The notes beneath the pieces were generated by a model, which had not been told where the DNA came from, did no database searches, and saw only the letters and a list, made by a program, of their open reading frames with translations. Positions 1 through 6,659 of a stretch of 30,250 bases of DNA are shown here, in pieces. This DNA is from a virus (Duplodnaviria > Heunggongvirae > Uroviricota > Caudoviricetes): IMG/VR virus record IMGVR_UViG_2609459863_000015; one strand, given 5' to 3'. Each line of letters begins with the position of its first letter. The first letter of the stretch is position 1. The position numbers were made by a program, and so were the translations under genes.

Positions 1-99
1 GTAATACGTTGACGGGGCAATATGCAGTTCGCTGCATAGCGGTCCGACCCCGTACTGCTCACGCAGCTTATCCAGCAGTGGCATCATTTTTTCCAGAGG
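1..99 (-). CDS. IS3-family transposase OrfB, N-terminal fragment (window-truncated), in the -1 frame overlapping the orfA stop
   Basis: Minus-strand translation of 1..99 gives [33 protein letters not shown], the typical N-terminus of an IS3-family OrfB. An A-rich run (GGAAAAAATGATG) at the orfA/orfB overlap is consistent with the programmed -1 frameshift window of this family. Confidence 0.6.
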
Positions 100-410
100 C
101 GGTCGAACTCCGCCTTCGCAAAATAAGCGGAAGCCTGGCGAAGGATATCGTTACTGCGGCGCAGTTCACGATTTTCACGTTCCAGCTCTTTCAGACGCTG
201 ACGTTCAGCGGTGGTGAGCCCGCCATCACCGCCTCCGGTATCCCGCTCATGCTGGCGTACCCAGACACGCAGAGTCTCCGGTGTACAGCCAATCTTTGGA
301 GCAATGGAACAAATTGCCGCCCACTGTGAGTCATATTCGCCCTGACTTTCCAGAACCATACGAATCGCCCTCTGACGGACTTCGGGGGAAAAACGAGTAT
401 TTTTAGTCAT
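84..410 (-). CDS. IS3-family transposase OrfA (helix-turn-helix plus leucine-zipper protein)
   Basis: 108 aa [64 protein letters not shown]...[26 protein letters not shown] matches IS629/IS1203 OrfA from memory. Confidence 0.85.
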
Positions 411-466
411 CCTGTTTACCTCTTTCTCAGGAAGTTTAGTCTCCAGGATTCCCGGGGCGGTTCACA

Positions 467-628
467 CCGCTTATTCGTGTCATGAACGGACACATCTACA
501 GAGTACCAGATCGTCGTAAGCGTAAACCGGAGCTGAAGCCTTCCGAAATACCAACACTGCTCGGATATACCGCCAGCCTGGTTGATAAAAAATGGTTGCG
601 ACTGGCAGCAAGGAGGAATCATGGCTGA
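467..628 (+). pseudogene. ninE: ninE-like gene, 5'-truncated by the IS insertion (start codon and first few codons lost)
   Basis: The frame opens directly at the IS boundary (465) and reads [53 protein letters not shown], resembling the NinE family of lambdoid nin regions. Its stop overlaps the ybcO-like start (ATGGCTGA). Confidence 0.5.
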
Positions 629-911
629 TTTGAGAAAAGCAGCGCGTAGTCGGGAATGCCAGGTAAGAATCCCTGGCGTATGTAATGGCAACCCTGAAAC
701 GTCTGTACTGGCACATATCCGGCTGACTGGATTGTGCGGCACCGGTACCAAACCGCCAGACCTGATTGCCACCATTGCATGTTCTGCCTGCCACGACGAA
801 ATCGACCGCCGCACACATTTTGTCGATGCTGCATATGCAAAAGAATGCGCGCTGGAAGGTATGGCGAGAACACAGGTTATCTGGCTGAAAGAGGGGGTTA
901 TTAAGGCGTGA
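621..911 (+). CDS. ybcO: DUF1364-family nin-region protein (YbcO-like, putative nuclease)
   Basis: ORF 582..911; the likely true start is the ATG at 621 ([26 protein letters not shown]...), preceded by AGGAGG at 611..616. Cys/His-rich. Its stop overlaps the rusA GTG start (GTGA). Confidence 0.7.
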
Positions 912-1270
912 ATACCTACAGCATCACATTACCCTGGCCTCCGAGCAATAATCGCTATTACCGCCATAATCGCGGGCGCACGCACGTCAGCGCAGAGGGG
1001 CAGGCATACCGCGATAACGTCGCCCGAATCATTAAAAACGCAATGCTGGATATCGGCCTGGCTATGCCTGTGAAAATCCGCATTGAGTGCCACATGCCGG
1101 ATCGCCGTCGCCGTGACCTGGATAATCTGCAAAAAGCCGCTTTTGACGCACTCACTAAAGCAGGTTTCTGGCTGGATGATGCTCAGGTCGTTGATTACCG
1201 CGTTGTGAAGATGCCTGTTACCAAAGGTGGGAGGCTGGAACTGACCATCACCGAAATGGGGAATGAATGA
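908..1270 (+). CDS. rusA: RusA crossover junction endodeoxyribonuclease (Holliday junction resolvase)
   Basis: 120 aa, [38 protein letters not shown]...[31 protein letters not shown]; matches E. coli RusA from memory. GTG start. Confidence 0.9.
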
Positions 1271-1407
1271 TGTTTGAGTTTTATATGGCAGAACGTCTTC
1301 GCCACCGCTGGGGGCGTCTGCGCTTATATCGTTTCCCCGGTTCTGTTTTGACCGATTACCGAATACTGAAGAATTACGCCAAAACCCTGACAGGAGCAGG
1401 AGTATGA
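1267..1407 (+). CDS. ylcG: Small nin-region protein (YlcG-like, 46 aa)
   Basis: Not in the ORF track (below its length cutoff). ATGATG at 1267 overlaps the rusA stop; translation [46 protein letters not shown]. Resembles DLP12 YlcG from memory. Confidence 0.55.
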
Positions 1408-1492
1408 AGTCAGAGATAACAATCAACTAATACTGTTTCGTTGATTTTTGCTTGTAATTGGCGTTCTGGTCTGATTTTTGTGGAGTAAGTTG

Positions 1493-1876
1493 ATGCGTGA
1501 TATTCAGATGGTTCTTGAGCGTTGGGGAGCGTGGGCGGCTAATAATCATGAAGATGTGACCTGGTCGTCCATTGCCGCCGGTTTTAAGGGATTAATTACT
1601 TCAAAAGTAAAATCTCGCCCGCAATGTTGTGACGATGACGCGATGATCATTTGCGGGTGCATGGCCCGTCTGAAAAAGAACAACAGCGATTTGCACGATT
1701 TATTAGTAGATTATTATGTAGTCGGTATGACATTCATGTCACTGGCAGGTAAGCATTGCTGCTCTGATGGTTATATCGGGAAAAGGTTACAGAAGGCTGA
1801 GGGCATAATTGAAGGGATGTTAATGGCATTAGATATCCGGTTAGAGATGGATATCGTTGTTAATAACTCTAATTAA
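1493..1876 (+). CDS. Q: Late-gene antiterminator Q (DLP12 QuuD-like)
   Basis: ORF 1478..1876; the likely start is the ATG at 1493 ([22 protein letters not shown]...), with GGAG 6 nt upstream. Cys-rich putative zinc-binding segment [16 protein letters not shown]. Sits in the canonical Q position after rusA/ylcG. Confidence 0.8.
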
Positions 1877-1908
1877 TACGCCAATTATTTACTAAAAGTT
1901 ATTAAAAA

Positions 1909-1928
1909 TGGGGCGTTGAAACGCCCCC
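1909..1928 (-). terminator. Rho-independent terminator for minus-strand (porin / IpeX-like) transcripts
   Basis: GGGGCGT/ACGCCCC stem with a 4-nt loop, followed on the minus strand by ATTTTTAATAA. Confidence 0.5.
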
Positions 1929-2015
1929 AAAAATAAAGGGTAATATATAACAGAAGGTTTGTATAGTTAGAAGCAAGGTTGTGCTTCTAAAGGAAGTGGC
2001 TTGAGGGAGCCACTT

Positions 2016-2056
2016 ATATGTTGGGGAGGCAAAGCCTCCCACAACATATCTTTTAG
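2016..2056 (+). terminator. Long GC-rich hairpin with a short T-tract on the plus strand; possible tR'-like terminator or simply part of the porin 3' UTR structure
   Basis: ATATGTTGGGGAGGC-AAA-GCCTCCCACAACATAT followed by CTTTTAG. Confidence 0.3.
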
Positions 2057-2064
2057 TAATCAAA

Positions 2065-3147
2065 TTAGAACTGGTAAACCATACCTACAGCAACGATATC
2101 ATCGGTAGCAACGCCAGATGCTTTCGTGAAATCGCTCTTATCAATCAGGTTGATTTTGTAGTCAACAAAAGTGGACATATTTTTGTTGAAGTAATAGGTT
2201 GCACCTACATCAACATATTCAACCAGGTCCTGATCACCCCAAACACCCAAGTCTTTTCCTTTAGAATGCAGGTAAGCAACGGATGGACGCAGGCCGAAGT
2301 CGAACTGATATTGTGCAACAGCTTCGAAGTTTTGTGCTTTGTTGGCAATATGGTTATTACCAAAAACAGTCATGTTCTGGGTTTCAGAATAGGTGGTGGC
2401 CAGATAGATGTTGTTCGCATCATATTTCAGACCAGCTGCCCATACTTCAGCATTTTGACCAGAAGCATTCAGACCGTTGTTACCGTAGATAACCTGATTA
2501 TTAGTGCGATCAGATTTAGCATAGGTTGCACCCACGCCGAATCCTTCATACTCATAAGTAGTTGAGAAACCGAAACCATCGCCATTAGCTTCAGTTACTT
2601 CATTTCGGTCATTTTTGCCCTGATACTGAGCTGCAAAGTTCAGGCCATCAACCAGACCAAAGAAGTCGTTGTTACGATAAGTTGCAACACCTGTGGTGCG
2701 ACCAGTCATGAATACATCTGTTTGGGTCCAGGTATCGCCACCGAATTCTGGCAGAACGTCAGTCCACGCACCGATGTCGTATGCTACACCGTAGTTACGG
2801 CCGTAATCGATTGAGCCGTAGTCACCGAATTTCAGGCCTGCAAATGCAAGACGGGTTTTGTCTTTGGAGGAACCTTGAGATTCAGCGCGGTTGCCTTTGA
2901 ATTCATATTCCCACTGACCGAAACCAGTCAGTTGATCGTTGATTTGGGTTTCACCTTTGAAGCCAAGACGGGCATAAGTAGTATCACCATCATCTGCATC
3001 ATTAGAGGAGAAGTAGTGCTTAGCATTAACTTTCCCGTACAGATCCAGCTTGTTACTGTCTTTATTATAAATTTCAGCTGCCTGAGCAGACATCGCCATC
3101 AGTACTGATGCAGCTACAGCAGAAATTGCCACTGTTAATTTTTTCAT
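2065..3147 (-). CDS. nmpC: Outer-membrane porin, NmpC/Lc (OmpC family), phage-borne moron, apparently intact
   Basis: 360 aa with signal peptide [40 protein letters not shown]... and C-terminal ...VAVGMVYQF (terminal Phe typical of OMPs). Matches NmpC from memory. Opposite strand to the flanking Q and lysis genes. Confidence 0.88.
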
Positions 3148-3735
3148 CGTGAGCCCTTTTTTTTGAACTATTATTAAAAAATGATGTCACTGCGCGATAA
3201 ATATTCATCTAATCAATGTGATTATTTCAAGATGTAAGTTTTAGTTTCTCATTTAATTTGTGAAGTAGATCTCTATTTTTATCTGAACTTTTTCTATCGA
3301 AACCTATTTATGGCTCTTATTTGAACAAAAATAAACCTATTAGCTAATTTATATTAATGGCTGTTATTTATGGGGGTTCTATAATTCGGCAGTTTAATTT
3401 AAATCAACTAAAAATAACCTCTGAAATTATTTATTGGTTATTTGTTGAGGTTTTCTTATGTATTTGTGGTGGTGTTTTGAACACTCGGTAGCATTCTCAT
3501 AAATATCATTCAGTGGTTTACGTACGTAAAAAATTGGTTATGCTGTTAAGAGTGGTTACTTCGTCACACAGCTTAAACCCGCCGTCGAGCTGGTTTTTCC
3601 ATTTTTTGAGTCTCGATATTAGCTGATAACTTAATACCTGAGTTATTCACTGACTCCGAGTCTGTTACGTTTCTGCTTTTTTGCGATACGTTGTATTCCC
3701 TCAATTTACACCCGCTTTGTCTGCGAGGTGGGGTT
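3148..3735. promoter_or_regulatory. AT-rich divergent intergenic region: porin promoter and 5' UTR on the minus strand, upstream region and RBS of the holin on the plus strand
   Basis: About 590 bp without convincing ORFs and very AT-rich between 3150 and 3480. GAGGTGGGG RBS just before the holin ATG at 3736. Confidence 0.4.
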
Positions 3736-3951
3736 ATGAAATCCATGGATAAGTTAACAACGGGTGTCGCCTATGGCACCTCAGCAGGTAGTGCCGGTTA
3801 CTGGTTTTTACAGCTGCTCGATAAAGTCACGCCCTCACAGTGGGCAGCAATAGGTGTGCTGGGTAGCCTGGTATTTGGCCTGCTGACGTACCTGACAAAC
3901 CTTTATTTCAAGATTAAAGAAGATAAGCGCAAGGCTGCGAGAGGTGAATAA
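3736..3951 (+). CDS. S: Class II holin / pinholin (phage 21 S21-like) with dual-start motif
   Basis: 71 aa [71 protein letters not shown]. Met1-Lys-Ser-Met4 gives antiholin and holin starts (3736 and 3745). The track ORF begins further upstream at a TTG. Confidence 0.85.
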
Positions 3952-4448
3952 TGCCTCCATCATTACGAAAAGCCGTTGCTGCTGCTATTGGTGGCGGAGC
4001 AATTGCTACAGCATCAGTGTTAATCACTGGCCCAAGTGGTAACGATGGTCTGGAAGGTGTCAGCTACATACCATACAAAGATATTGTTGGTGTATGGACT
4101 GTATGTCACGGGCATACAGGAAAAGACATCATGCTCGGTAAAACGTATACCGAAGCAGAGTGCAAAGCCCTCCTGAATAAAGACCTTGCCACTGTCGCCA
4201 GGCAAATTAACCCGTATATCGAAGTCGATATACCGGAAACAACGCGCGGCGCTCTTTACTCATTCGTTTACAACGTGGGTGCTGGCAATTTCAGAACATC
4301 GACGCTTCTTCGCAAAATAAACCAGGGCGATATCAAAGGCGCATGTGATCAGCTACGTCGCTGGACATATGCTGGCGGTAAGCAATGGAAAGGGCTGATG
4401 ACTCGCCGTGAGATTGAGCGTGAAGTCTGTTTGTGGGGGCAGCAATGA
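3951..4448 (+). CDS. R: SAR (signal-anchor-release) endolysin, lysozyme family
   Basis: 165 aa. N-terminal Gly/Ala-rich weakly hydrophobic segment [20 protein letters not shown] followed by a lysozyme-like domain. Start overlaps the holin stop (TAATG). Confidence 0.85.
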
Positions 4449-4882
4449 GCAGAGTAACTGCGATTATCTTCGCTCTGGTTATCTGCATCATCGTCTGCCT
4501 GTCATGGGCTGTTAATCATTACCGTGATAACGCCATGACCTACAAAGAACAGCGCGACAAAGCCACATCCATCATCGCTGACATGCAGAAGCGTCAACGT
4601 GACGTAGCAGAACTCGATGCCAGATATACAAAGGAACTTGCTGATGCTAACGCGACTATCGAAAGTCTCCGTGATGATGTTTCTGCTGGGCGTAAGCGGC
4701 TGCAAGTCGCCGCCTCCTGTGCAAAGTCAAAGACCGGAGCCAGCAGCATGGGCGATGGAGAAAGCCCAAGACTTACAGCAGATGCTGAACTCAATTATTA
4801 CCGTCTCCGAAGTGGAATCGACAGGATAACCGCGCAGGTTAACTACCTGCAGGAGTACATCAGGACGCAATGTCTGAAATAA
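4445..4882 (+). CDS. Rz: Rz i-spanin (inner-membrane spanin subunit)
   Basis: Start ATG at 4445 overlaps the endolysin stop (ATGA). N-terminal TM segment [16 protein letters not shown] followed by a coiled-coil-like, charged periplasmic domain. The track ORF starts at a GTG at 4433. Confidence 0.8.
4644..4829 (+). CDS. Rz1: Rz1 o-spanin (outer-membrane lipoprotein), embedded in the +1 frame of Rz
   Basis: [36 protein letters not shown]...: signal peptide with lipobox VSGC followed by a Pro-rich mature part, entirely inside Rz. Start chosen at the ATG at 4644 for a proper n-region; AAGGAA lies upstream. Confidence 0.7.
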
Positions 4883-4913
4883 TTTTTTTGCAAATCACAA
4901 AGTCCATTTAATG

Positions 4914-4972
4914 AGCCTCGCGATGCGGGGCTTTTTTGCAATAAATGCGTACCGCAACGCATGTTTTTTTTT
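4914..4972 (+). terminator. Tandem Rho-independent terminators downstream of the lysis cassette
   Basis: Imperfect hairpin GCCTCGCG-ATG-CGGGGC followed by TTTTTT (4914..4937), then ATGCGT-ACCGCA-ACGCAT followed by G plus nine T (4945..4972). Confidence 0.55.
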
Positions 4973-5087
4973 ACACCGAACCTGCCCCTTTGGAATGGGC
5001 CTTTGAGGATACCAGTTAGTGCTGGCGAGCCTCGGTGGGCTGGTTTCCTGTGCGGCAAAGGTTCATTTCAAATGGTAGGTAAACGTT

Positions 5088-5609
5088 ATGAATATCGTGC
5101 CACTTAATTACAAAGGTGAAATTGTCAGTTTCAACACTGATGGTTGGATCAACGTCACAGGTGTTGCTGAGAGATTTGGGAAACGCATTGATAACTGGAT
5201 GCGTTTGGCAGAAACGCTTGAATACGTTCGTGCTTTAGACGAAGCGTTGACCGGGAAAGAATCTCAAATTTTACATCCCTCACAATCGAGGTATGTAAAA
5301 ACCAGCAAGGCACGAAAGGACAGGGGTGGTGGTACGTGGCTACATCCAAAACTTTCAGTTGCATTTGCCCGTTGGTGTGATGCTCGTTTTGCTGTGTGGT
5401 GCGACCTGCACATTGATAGTCTGCTTCGCGGTGAACTGACTGAGCAGCAGAAATATGAGCAAGCATGTCGCATTCGCGATGACCGGAAATCAAAAGCCAG
5501 CAATGGGGCAAGAGAGATGGCTCGCTGGCGATGGGATAAGCCGGTTATTGAAGCAAATGTTGAGTACTGGCGCGAGCAACTGCAGTTGACTCTCGATATC
5601 GCGTGCTGA
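5088..5609 (+). CDS. KilA-N domain-like protein (putative DNA-binding, phage-associated); family assignment tentative
   Basis: 173 aa. N-terminal segment ...FNTDGWINVTGVAERFGKRIDNWMRLAETLEYVRAL... resembles the KilA-N / APSES-like fold; basic C-terminal half. Occupies the position that bor holds in lambda. Confidence 0.5.
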   Translation: MNIVPLNYKGEIVSFNTDGWINVTGVAERFGKRIDNWMRLAETLEYVRALDEALTGKESQILHPSQSRYVKTSKARKDRGGGTWLHPKLSVAFARWCDARFAVWCDLHIDSLLRGELTEQQKYEQACRIRDDRKSKASNGAREMARWRWDKPVIEANVEYWREQLQLTLDIAC

Positions 5610-5748
5610 TGGCAAACGCAAAACTGCGTTATCGAAAAAATCAAAGCATTACTAGAACTGAGCAACGGCTATCCATTACAAAGCCCATCTACGGGTGGGC
5701 TTGATAATGGCTTATACCCTGCACGGGATAACTTAACTGATATCCCTT

Positions 5749-5913
5749 TTAACGGATAAAGGCATTCAAGCCTGACACATCATGCGCTGTATCGTCGCCG
5801 TATTCCCGTATTAACAGAGACCGTAGCCCGACGGGGAACTCCTTCTGCGCGAGTGTGCGGGAATAATCAAAAACGATGCACACCGGGGTTACCGGGTACA
5901 CATATTTCATCAT
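5749..5913 (-). CDS. Hypothetical small protein (54 aa), possible third gene of the minus-strand cassette
   Basis: Not in the ORF track. Minus-strand ATGATG at 5913/5910, translation MMKYVYPVTPVCIVFDYSRTLAQKEFPVGLRSLLIREYGDDTAHDVSGLNAFIR*. Starts 45 nt after the DUF1398 stop. Weak RBS, no homology recalled. Confidence 0.2.
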   Translation of the reverse strand: MMKYVYPVTPVCIVFDYSRTLAQKEFPVGLRSLLIREYGDDTAHDVSGLNAFIR

Positions 5914-5958
5914 GCCAGCGAGTCCGGTTCTGGCACGGAAGAAACCGGACGTTATGAT

Positions 5959-6369
5959 TTAGTGCGGAAATATTTGTGTAGTGTTCTGAATGTTCTCAGT
6001 AAAGAGTAATGAATTATCAAAGGTATAGTAATACCTTTTGTTTTCGTGGATATTTGTAATCCATCTGAAAACCCCTGCTGTAGCAAGATTTTTCCTGTAT
6101 TCGTAAAATGATAACTCTCCTGATTTGAATCCTTTTAAGGTGGCTTCTATAAGGCATTTATTTTTTGAAAATCTTACATTTACAACCTTACCCTGTCCTT
6201 TTATTAAAACCGTATTATCGTTTTCAAGAACAAGATGAATATTCTCTGTAGCTAAATAGTAAATGTAATGTGAGACATTGTGACGTTTTAGTTCAGAATA
6301 AAACCAGTGATAGTTTAAATTATTTCGCACTTTATCGAATATTTGTTTAAAAATGGCAACCTGAGCCAT
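5959..6369 (-). CDS. ybcV: DUF1398-family protein (YbcV/YdfO-like), function unknown
   Basis: ORF 5959..6384; the likely start is the internal Met ([58 protein letters not shown]...) with AAGG upstream. Very AT-rich coding sequence. Resembles DLP12 YbcV and Qin YdfO from memory. Confidence 0.65.
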
Positions 6370-6425
6370 TGTAGTACCTTCCATGTGATATGAGGGGCGT
6401 AGTCTGCACGATTATCTAAATTGCT

Positions 6426-6659
6426 TCAATCTGGTCTGATCTGTTTTCTGAGCAATTCAGTAATGTCACTCTTTTCTTTGTTTGCTTCAGGAGAAACTCT
6501 TTTTTCTGAGCACAGTCTCCGGCGGCAGGCTTCAATGACCCAGGCTGAGAAATTCCCGGACCCTTTTTGATCAAGAGCGATGTTAATTTGTTCAATCATT
6601 TGGTTAGGAAAGCGGATGTTGCGGATTGTTGTTCTGCGGGTTCTGTTCTTCGTTGACAT
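6426..6659 (-). CDS. ylcI: Ribbon-helix-helix (Arc/MetJ-like) small DNA-binding protein, YlcI/DUF3950-like
   Basis: 77 aa MSTKNRTRRTTIRNIRFPNQMIEQINIALDQKGSGNFSAWVIEACRRRL...: basic N-terminal beta-strand followed by two helices, as in RHH repressors. First gene of a minus-strand cassette with the DUF1398 gene 56 bp downstream. Confidence 0.6.
   Translation of the reverse strand: MSTKNRTRRTTIRNIRFPNQMIEQINIALDQKGSGNFSAWVIEACRRRLCSEKRVSPEANKEKSDITELLRKQIRPD

Follow-up and report, generated by a model that had tools for sequence, protein, structure and literature searches.

Related phage-borne porin modules

Phage-borne porins of the NmpC/Lc type, their location between the late antiterminator gene Q and the lysis gene S, and their expression in lysogens have been known since the 1970s–80s. 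The lc gene of phage PA-2 (record J02580; Blasband, Marcotte and Schnaitman 1986) lies in a segment with the order Q end, antisense porin gene, spacer and lysis genes. The DLP12 prophage (qsr') of E. coli K-12 carries the same module, with genes quuD, nmpC, essD, rrrD and rzpD, although its nmpC gene is interrupted by IS5B after codon 346. One study (PMC7918800), which cites Rueggeberg 2013 and 2015, assigns the lysis-operon promoter region of DLP12 to the nmpC–essD spacer and places it under the control of a Q-like protein and RpoE. The 933W-type Stx phages share the same Q family, and their late promoter pR' overlaps the Q stop codon, with tRNA genes and then stx situated downstream of pR' within the late transcript.

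The locus described here is part of a 30,250-nt stretch of viral DNA (the window) and has the gene order and orientation of the PA-2 segment, with an intact porin gene. We consider it likely, with a probability of about 0.82, that the porin gene is a moron lying between Q and pR', and that late transcription starts downstream of the porin gene.

Genome context and distribution

Window coordinates 464–6000 match a lambda-like prophage present in E. coli O104:H4 and several further strains at 100% identity, and coordinates 6000–30250 match it at 99.9%; an IS3-family element at coordinates 1–463 abuts the nin region. In strain 2011C-3493 the O104:H4-type prophage adjoins ybhC and has a complete complement of head and tail genes. 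Whereas DLP12 is defective and located at argU, the prophage of the window is a full lambda-like element, identical with the one that O104:H4 carries at ybhC.

The 3.1-kb Q–porin–lysis module is ordinary and very common in E. coli. It is present in 2313 of 5426 complete genomes (~40%) at a coverage of at least 80%, a count that includes copies split by IS5, since nearby pieces were joined. Phage records with the module number 36, the 1986 PA-2 lc record among them, and plaque-forming carriers include ev099, ev243, ev207, 4C10, the PhiR series and Turner; phage 434B carries it by way of an acquired segment of K-12 DLP12. Annotators of the phage records name the porin gene OmpD or OmpC.

The plus-strand genes upstream of the porin gene are ybcO, rusA, ylcG and quuD, the last of which (1493–1876) encodes a 127-aa late antiterminator Q of the 933W/DLP12 type (Pfam PF06530, E = 3.5e-53). 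QuuD has weak similarity to Q21 structures (E = 7.6e-07, 32 bits), and because it is distant from Q21, whose promoter is published, the 933W-type Q served as the reference instead. Over residues 1–120 QuuD shares 78% identity with the Q protein of Stx2 phage 06-3462, and it diverges beyond; as this homology is lost at about coordinate 1853, the left junction of the inserted block is placed there. To the right of the porin gene and also transcribed rightwards are an S21-type holin gene with a dual start (MKSM...; 3736–3951; PF04971, E = 2e-35) and the genes for the lysozyme RrrD (3951–4448; PF00959) and the Rz spanin (4445–4882; PF03245). RrrD and Rz are both annotated in the identical O104:H4 prophage and are the first genes of the late operon downstream of the holin. 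An S71/S68 dual-start annotation of the holin is found in the phage 434B record. An Rfam scan of coordinates 1400–4000 with E values up to 1 gives no match.

The porin gene

An uninterrupted open reading frame at 2065–3147 on the minus strand encodes, from the ORF list and its translation, a 360-aa general porin of the NmpC/Lc type, and the feature is an intact member of the NmpC/Lc porin family of lambdoid phages. Residues 29–360 align with the whole of the Pfam Porin_1 profile (PF00267, 1–337 of 337; E = 3.6e-152), scoring 507 bits against a cutoff of 23.7. Among the NCBIfam models only the OmpC subfamily cutoff is cleared (515 bits vs 484), the score falling below the PhoE and OmpF equivalog cutoffs. 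The mature protein aligns end to end with the crystal-structure chains of OmpC, OmpK36 and PhoE (E ~1e-133 to 1e-135), and by this homology it very likely forms a 16-stranded trimeric beta-barrel diffusion pore. The translation contains a signal peptide ending at AQA/AE, with AEIYN at the start of the mature protein, the L3 constriction-loop motif PEFGG, and a C-terminal Phe (MVYQF); the signal peptide is 23 residues long, like that annotated for Lc of PA-2.

The porin is 90% identical to PA-2 Lc, although its allele is 5 aa shorter, and 91% identical to fragment 1 of K-12 NmpC (the first 346 aa). Nearly all of the differences from Lc and NmpC fall within residues ~181–270, which probably correspond to surface loops. 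The chromosomal general porins OmpC, OmpF and PhoE and the Salmonella porin OmpD belong to the same family and align over their full lengths, but unlike them the window porin is phage-borne. An earlier note, made from the sequence of this DNA, had described an intact porin moron, antisense and lying between Q and the holin, that is uninterrupted in contrast to nmpC of K-12. The open reading frame, the Pfam match and the flanking genes bear out this description, as does the splitting of MG1655 nmpC by IS5B.

The porin upstream region and porin expression

The spacer between the porin and holin genes contains two conserved islands, one on the porin side and one at the late promoter, with a freely drifting spacer between them. 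Counted over eight porin modules, the porin-side island (3148–3300), which holds the minus-strand porin 5′ UTR and promoter region, has 2–4 variable sites per 50 nt, the AT-rich segment that follows (3301–3500; 25–30% G+C) has 8–14, and coordinates 3500–3650 have 1–3. The variable segment is without a detectable conserved element in the eight modules. The G+C content is 25–30% across 3101–3500 and climbs to 36–44% across 3500–3735, so the strong AT-richness is confined to the part near the porin gene. The earlier proposal that the AT-rich region 3148–3735 is porin regulatory DNA thus stands for about 3148–3300, which is conserved, but not for 3500–3650, which belongs to the late-promoter cassette.

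Two proposed CRP sites are annotated in J02580. The proximal one corresponds by alignment to a conserved CRP-type site, TGTGAAGTAGATCTCT, at about 3256–3276 of the window. The second falls at 3552–3572, in a portion of the late-promoter block that is transcribed and invariant, and it more plausibly belongs to the late control element.

Consensus scans of the porin upstream region yield weak minus-strand promoter candidates only. In K-12, PnmpC is functional within −199 to −1 of the ATG, and a sigma-70 promoter in these 199 bp transcribes nmpC and, in this strain, the IS5 transposase too (PMC11677980); the K-12 region from −199 to −1 is nearly identical to its window counterpart. In strain NCM3722, in which the gene is intact, NmpC constitutes ~2% of the proteome, 200-fold over MG1655, and its level goes up when carbon is limiting, in a trade-off with OmpC (PMC8144880). 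These publications on close homologs agree with the earlier suggestion that the porin is expressed from the prophage, and by analogy they support a role for the window porin as a major, catabolite-sensitive outer-membrane protein of the lysogen. Literature on H-NS/MotB and on RNA polymerase omega contains nothing relevant to the porin locus.

The probable late promoter block

A putative pR' is predicted on the plus strand at 3517–3544 by homology to Stx2 phage 06-3462, with a −35 hexamer TTTACG (3517–3522), a 16-nt spacer and a −10 hexamer TATGCT (3539–3544), together matching the consensus at 8 of 12 positions. Transcription is predicted to start near 3551, which leaves about 185 nt to the holin gene. 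The pR' of 06-3462 is annotated as TTTACG-16-TATCAT, and this annotation is itself labelled ‘putative’. A default promoter scan finds no site in either intergenic region, missing the pR' homolog too, and the hexamers are recovered by our own looser hexamer scan of the intergenic regions. A single copy of the core motif TAAGAGTGGTTAC is present in the window.

An 83-nt segment of the porin–holin spacer (3516–3598) matches 355 phage records. Its counterpart in 933W-type Stx phages has its left end inside Q, 13 nt ahead of the stop codon, and carries annotations for pR' and the first terminator, such that the promoter, the initial transcribed region and the first terminator are all homologous to the window. 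The predicted Stx pR' start plus 258 nt falls exactly at the annotated second terminator; the 258-nt StxS-L RNA was assigned to pR' by Sy et al. 2020 from Northern blots and RNase E processing (PMC7547250). When the window is aligned with K-12, a Stx phage, PhiR55_1, SfII and phiP27, the pattern TATxxT is retained in the −10 hexamer and the ~45 nt from the −10 hexamer through the terminator stem are essentially invariant in all six, with unrelated flanks. Records bearing the block (355) and records of the Q family (401) have almost identical organism breakdowns (Q-family/block: Stx2a 123/123, Stx1a 47/47, Enterobacteria 23/23, Stx2 19/19), and phiP27 keeps the block though its Q is only 48% identical. 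From these comparisons we infer that the block at 3517–3609 is the cognate late control site of QuuD, at which both promoter activity and Q action would reside, and the most probable start of Q-dependent late transcription is near 3551.

The end of Q at 1876 and the promoter at 3517 are not adjacent, and the porin cassette lies between them. Adjacency of Q and pR' is usual but is not mechanistically required, since Q acts in trans; a separation of 1.64 kb would therefore be harmless, and the porin gene need not be crossed. Two features of the locus are those expected of a moron: in Stx phage 06-3462, where the porin is absent, Q and the pR' block are contiguous, and the porin has its own terminator, a minus-strand G+C-rich hairpin with a T-run (1927–1910), accompanied by three more hairpins. 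Other cargo lies between Q and the block in related phages, namely a plus-strand GIY-YIG gene in phiP27, two antisense open reading frames in SfII and one in PhiR55_1, and the porin module is thus not alone in having Q set apart from its promoter. Unlike the Stx phages, the window has its cargo outside the late transcript, and the porin does not occupy the position of stx as had been thought: stx is downstream of pR' and the porin gene is upstream of it.

The predicted first late terminator and leader

Downstream of the predicted promoter come an invariant initial transcribed region, GTTAAGAGTGGTTACTTCGTCACACAGCTTAAACCCGCCG, and then a hairpin and U-tract that would form the first late terminator (3545–3609, from alignment and folding). 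The late leader aligned beyond it (3610–3735) extends up to the holin ribosome-binding site and differs from that of K-12 by a 16–17 nt indel, a 16-nt deletion in K-12. Homology to the Stx phages stops at about +50, and the 3′ portion from which the StxS small RNA arises is missing from the window.

The terminator has two alleles, GCTGG in the window, PA-2, ev099, Turner and ev207, and GCGGG in K-12, 4C10, PhiR26_1 and ev243; the G/T polymorphism is 4:4 among the eight modules. The PA-2 porin–holin spacer is ~96% identical to that of the window, including the pR' block with its GCTGG allele. The K-12 and Stx alleles form a canonical hairpin with a U-tract, and the T allele breaks this stem: the predicted folding energy, which is −21.9 kcal/mol for the Stx phage and −16 for K-12, is −8.4 for the window. 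The GCTGG allele folds no better than shuffled sequence, though another stem, CAGCUU/GAGCUG, precedes the U-tract. Plaque-forming phages include carriers of each allele, so the two are compatible with phage growth, and because the terminator is weakened in the window allele the need for antitermination there is less obvious.

The quuD–porin spacer

The spacer between quuD and the porin gene (1877–2064) contains four strong hairpins in total. An intrinsic terminator in the porin direction (minus strand, 1910–1927; terminator scan and folding) consists of GGGGCGTTTCAACGCCCC followed by ATTTTT, and across eight modules its stem is kept and its loop is variable. The other three hairpins are consecutive in the folded spacer (1967–1990, 1994–2015 and 2016–2049; together 1967–2049), and the last of these abuts the porin stop codon and, with CTTTT after it on the plus strand, resembles a terminator of transcripts that exit quuD. 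Plus-strand folding of the spacer gives −52.6 kcal/mol (z = −5.8) and minus-strand folding −48.2 kcal/mol (z = −7.2), and its hairpins look like terminators that would insulate the convergent quuD and porin units. Relatives of the spacer are found only among porin-carrying modules, and it is without homology to any pR'. Downstream of quuD the pR' core motif has chance-level matches only, with 3 mismatches, and no second copy.

Alternative routes of transcription

The earlier note had Q-dependent late transcription crossing about 1.7 kb antisense to the porin, a route that would place pR' directly after quuD and silence the porin at induction. Such an arrangement has precedent, in that pR' directly follows Q in the characterized lambdoid phages (lambda, 82, 21 and 933W) and overlaps the Q stop codon in the Stx phages, and the 189-bp spacer after quuD does hold the weak pairs TTGAAA-19-TAATAT and TTAATA-17-AATTAT. 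However, this spacer is confined to porin modules, has no pR' homology, and is made up of four strong hairpins, including the plus-strand terminator-like one at the porin stop codon. The cognate pR' block of the Q family sits instead at 3517–3609, and homology to Q933W stops inside the 3′ end of quuD, as expected if an insertion had parted Q from its promoter. A pR' immediately after quuD is thus highly improbable; the sole cognate promoter homolog, at 3517–3544, is downstream of the porin gene, and as far as the sequence evidence reaches this is where late transcription would start, the outcome that the earlier note had set against its own model. An unlikely but somewhat more credible arrangement is that the lysis genes are transcribed from a sigma-E-type promoter near the porin start codon (the published DLP12 ‘essDp’), with Q acting there and the 933W-like block being a relic or a second promoter. 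The sequence, read directly, has GAACTA (3165–3170) and TCACT (3187–3191) with 16-nt spacing and a start near 3196, and RpoE and Q(DLP12) reportedly both act on essDp. The regulatory region is given as ‘−121 to +650’ (Rueggeberg 2015, as cited in PMC7918800), and the published forward primer maps to window coordinates 3075–3094, which puts +1 at ~3196 if the primer marks ‘−121’. Against this, the reverse primer of the DLP12 amplicon is unmapped within 3–4 mismatches, and genomic SELEX has no RpoE site at essD, with an RpoS-holoenzyme peak only (PMC5493296). Transcription starting at 3196 must also still traverse the conserved pR' block and its terminator, and conservation across phages tracks the 933W-like block with Q, not the GAACTA-16-TCACT motif. 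A start at this position is also downstream of the porin coding sequence, and so it too contradicts an antisense crossing of the porin by late transcription.

Antisense RNA over the porin gene could arise at induction in another way, from antiterminated early rightward transcription (pR, nin region, Q), with a milder and Q-independent interference. N-modified pR transcripts of lambda and H-19B pass downstream terminators and run beyond Q, and the plus-strand hairpin and T-run at 2016–2053 would stop unmodified polymerase only. Nonetheless, the identical O104:H4 prophage has no N-like open reading frame of at least 60 aa at the expected place, and the IS3-family element abutting the nin region may uncouple nin from pR. 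Read-through of this kind is possible, if doubtful.

Organization of the module and implications

With pR' downstream of the porin gene, as we favour, the porin would be a self-contained lysogenic-conversion cassette (moron) of a lambda-like prophage. It would have its own catabolite-sensitive promoter region at ~3148–3300 on the minus strand and its own terminators at 1910–2049, and the porin expressed from the prophage may serve as a major outer-membrane pore. The cassette (~1853–3515) would have been inserted between the Q gene and the cognate late promoter of Q, and would thus be outside the late operon, with Q-modified RNA polymerase from pR' (3517–3544) reading into the holin, lysozyme, Rz and structural genes.

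A broader proposal is tentative, and as a whole we think it more apt to fail than to hold. It has the Q/pR' junction of the 933W/DLP12 Q family as a recurrent slot for cargo that is expressed in the lysogen and insulated from the late operon. The true Q-responsive promoter of DLP12 and PA-2 would then be the sigma-70 block at 3517–3609, part of which was annotated as a CRP site in 1986, and not the sigma-E-type site derived from published DLP12 coordinates.

The placement of the porin gene upstream of the late promoter, rather than as a passenger of the late operon like stx, corrects the earlier model of the locus. Models of porin regulation at induction should therefore not presume that Q drives antisense transcription over the porin gene. 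In studies of the DLP12 lysis cassette, the Q target is most naturally sought in the conserved 933W-like promoter block.

The putative late promoter block

The 1986 record of the porin-carrying phage PA-2 (J02580) annotates a distal 'CRP binding site' that maps to window positions 3552..3572, which puts it in the pR'-like block, within its invariant initial transcribed region. Its TCACA half-site is not preserved in Stx phages, where the corresponding sequence is CCACG, and the element probably does not serve the porin as a CRP site. At position 3592 (within 3577..3600), the first late terminator has a G/T polymorphism in its stem (GCGGG versus GCTGG), with the two alleles divided 4:4 among the eight aligned Q-porin-lysis modules. 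Folding indicates that the T allele, which the window carries, weakens the canonical hairpin; plaque-forming phages also carry GCTGG. Homology to the Stx-phage late leader ends at about +50 (window 3601..3735 compared with 2585..2793 of the Stx-phage record L004). In Stx phages the regulatory small RNA StxS comes from the 3′ part of this leader (PMC7547250), and because the homology stops where it does, that part has no counterpart in the window.

The porin gene and its upstream region

A sigma-E-like motif (GAACTA—16 nt—TCACT) is situated on the plus strand at 3165..3191, separated by 18 nt from the start codon of the porin, and would predict a transcription start near 3196. The upstream coordinate of the published DLP12 promoter amplicon is '-121' (PMC7918800); the forward primer maps at window position 3075, and counting '-121' from there leads to 3196, coinciding with the motif-predicted start. 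The porin's differences from Lc, and from NmpC of K-12, lie nearly all in one stretch at residues about 181–270, two small indels among them, and across the eight modules DNA variability is highest at window positions 2100–2600. This clustering in the sequences is consistent with diversifying surface loops.

Flanking genes and cargo

At the left edge, the end of an IS3-family element (1..463) with a transposase orfA-like ORF (84..410, minus strand) abuts the nin region just before ybcO. This junction is absent from all complete E. coli genomes of the collection searched, and the best matches in them all start at window position 464. Downstream of Rz are a rightwards-transcribed KilA-N gene (5088..5609) and, leftwards-transcribed, a DUF1398 gene (5959..6384) and a YlcI/YnfO-like ORF (6426..6659); K-12 DLP12 has borD at the place corresponding to 5088..6659, whereas the window lacks it.

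A second outer-membrane moron occupies the same neighbourhood as the porin in phages 434 and 434B: immediately upstream of ylcG and Q lies an antisense gene whose product resembles the lipid A deacylase LpxR (434B, L003 1271..2230).

In phiP27, a GIY-YIG nuclease gene (L009 239..1468) separates the conserved pR' block from a Q gene of the QuuD family; in the same position SfII has two antisense ORFs (L008 1..1443) and PhiR55_1 a single antisense ORF (L005 1490..1936). Because each of these phages holds different cargo genes there, the junction of the Q gene and the pR' block is suggested to be a recurrent insertion slot.
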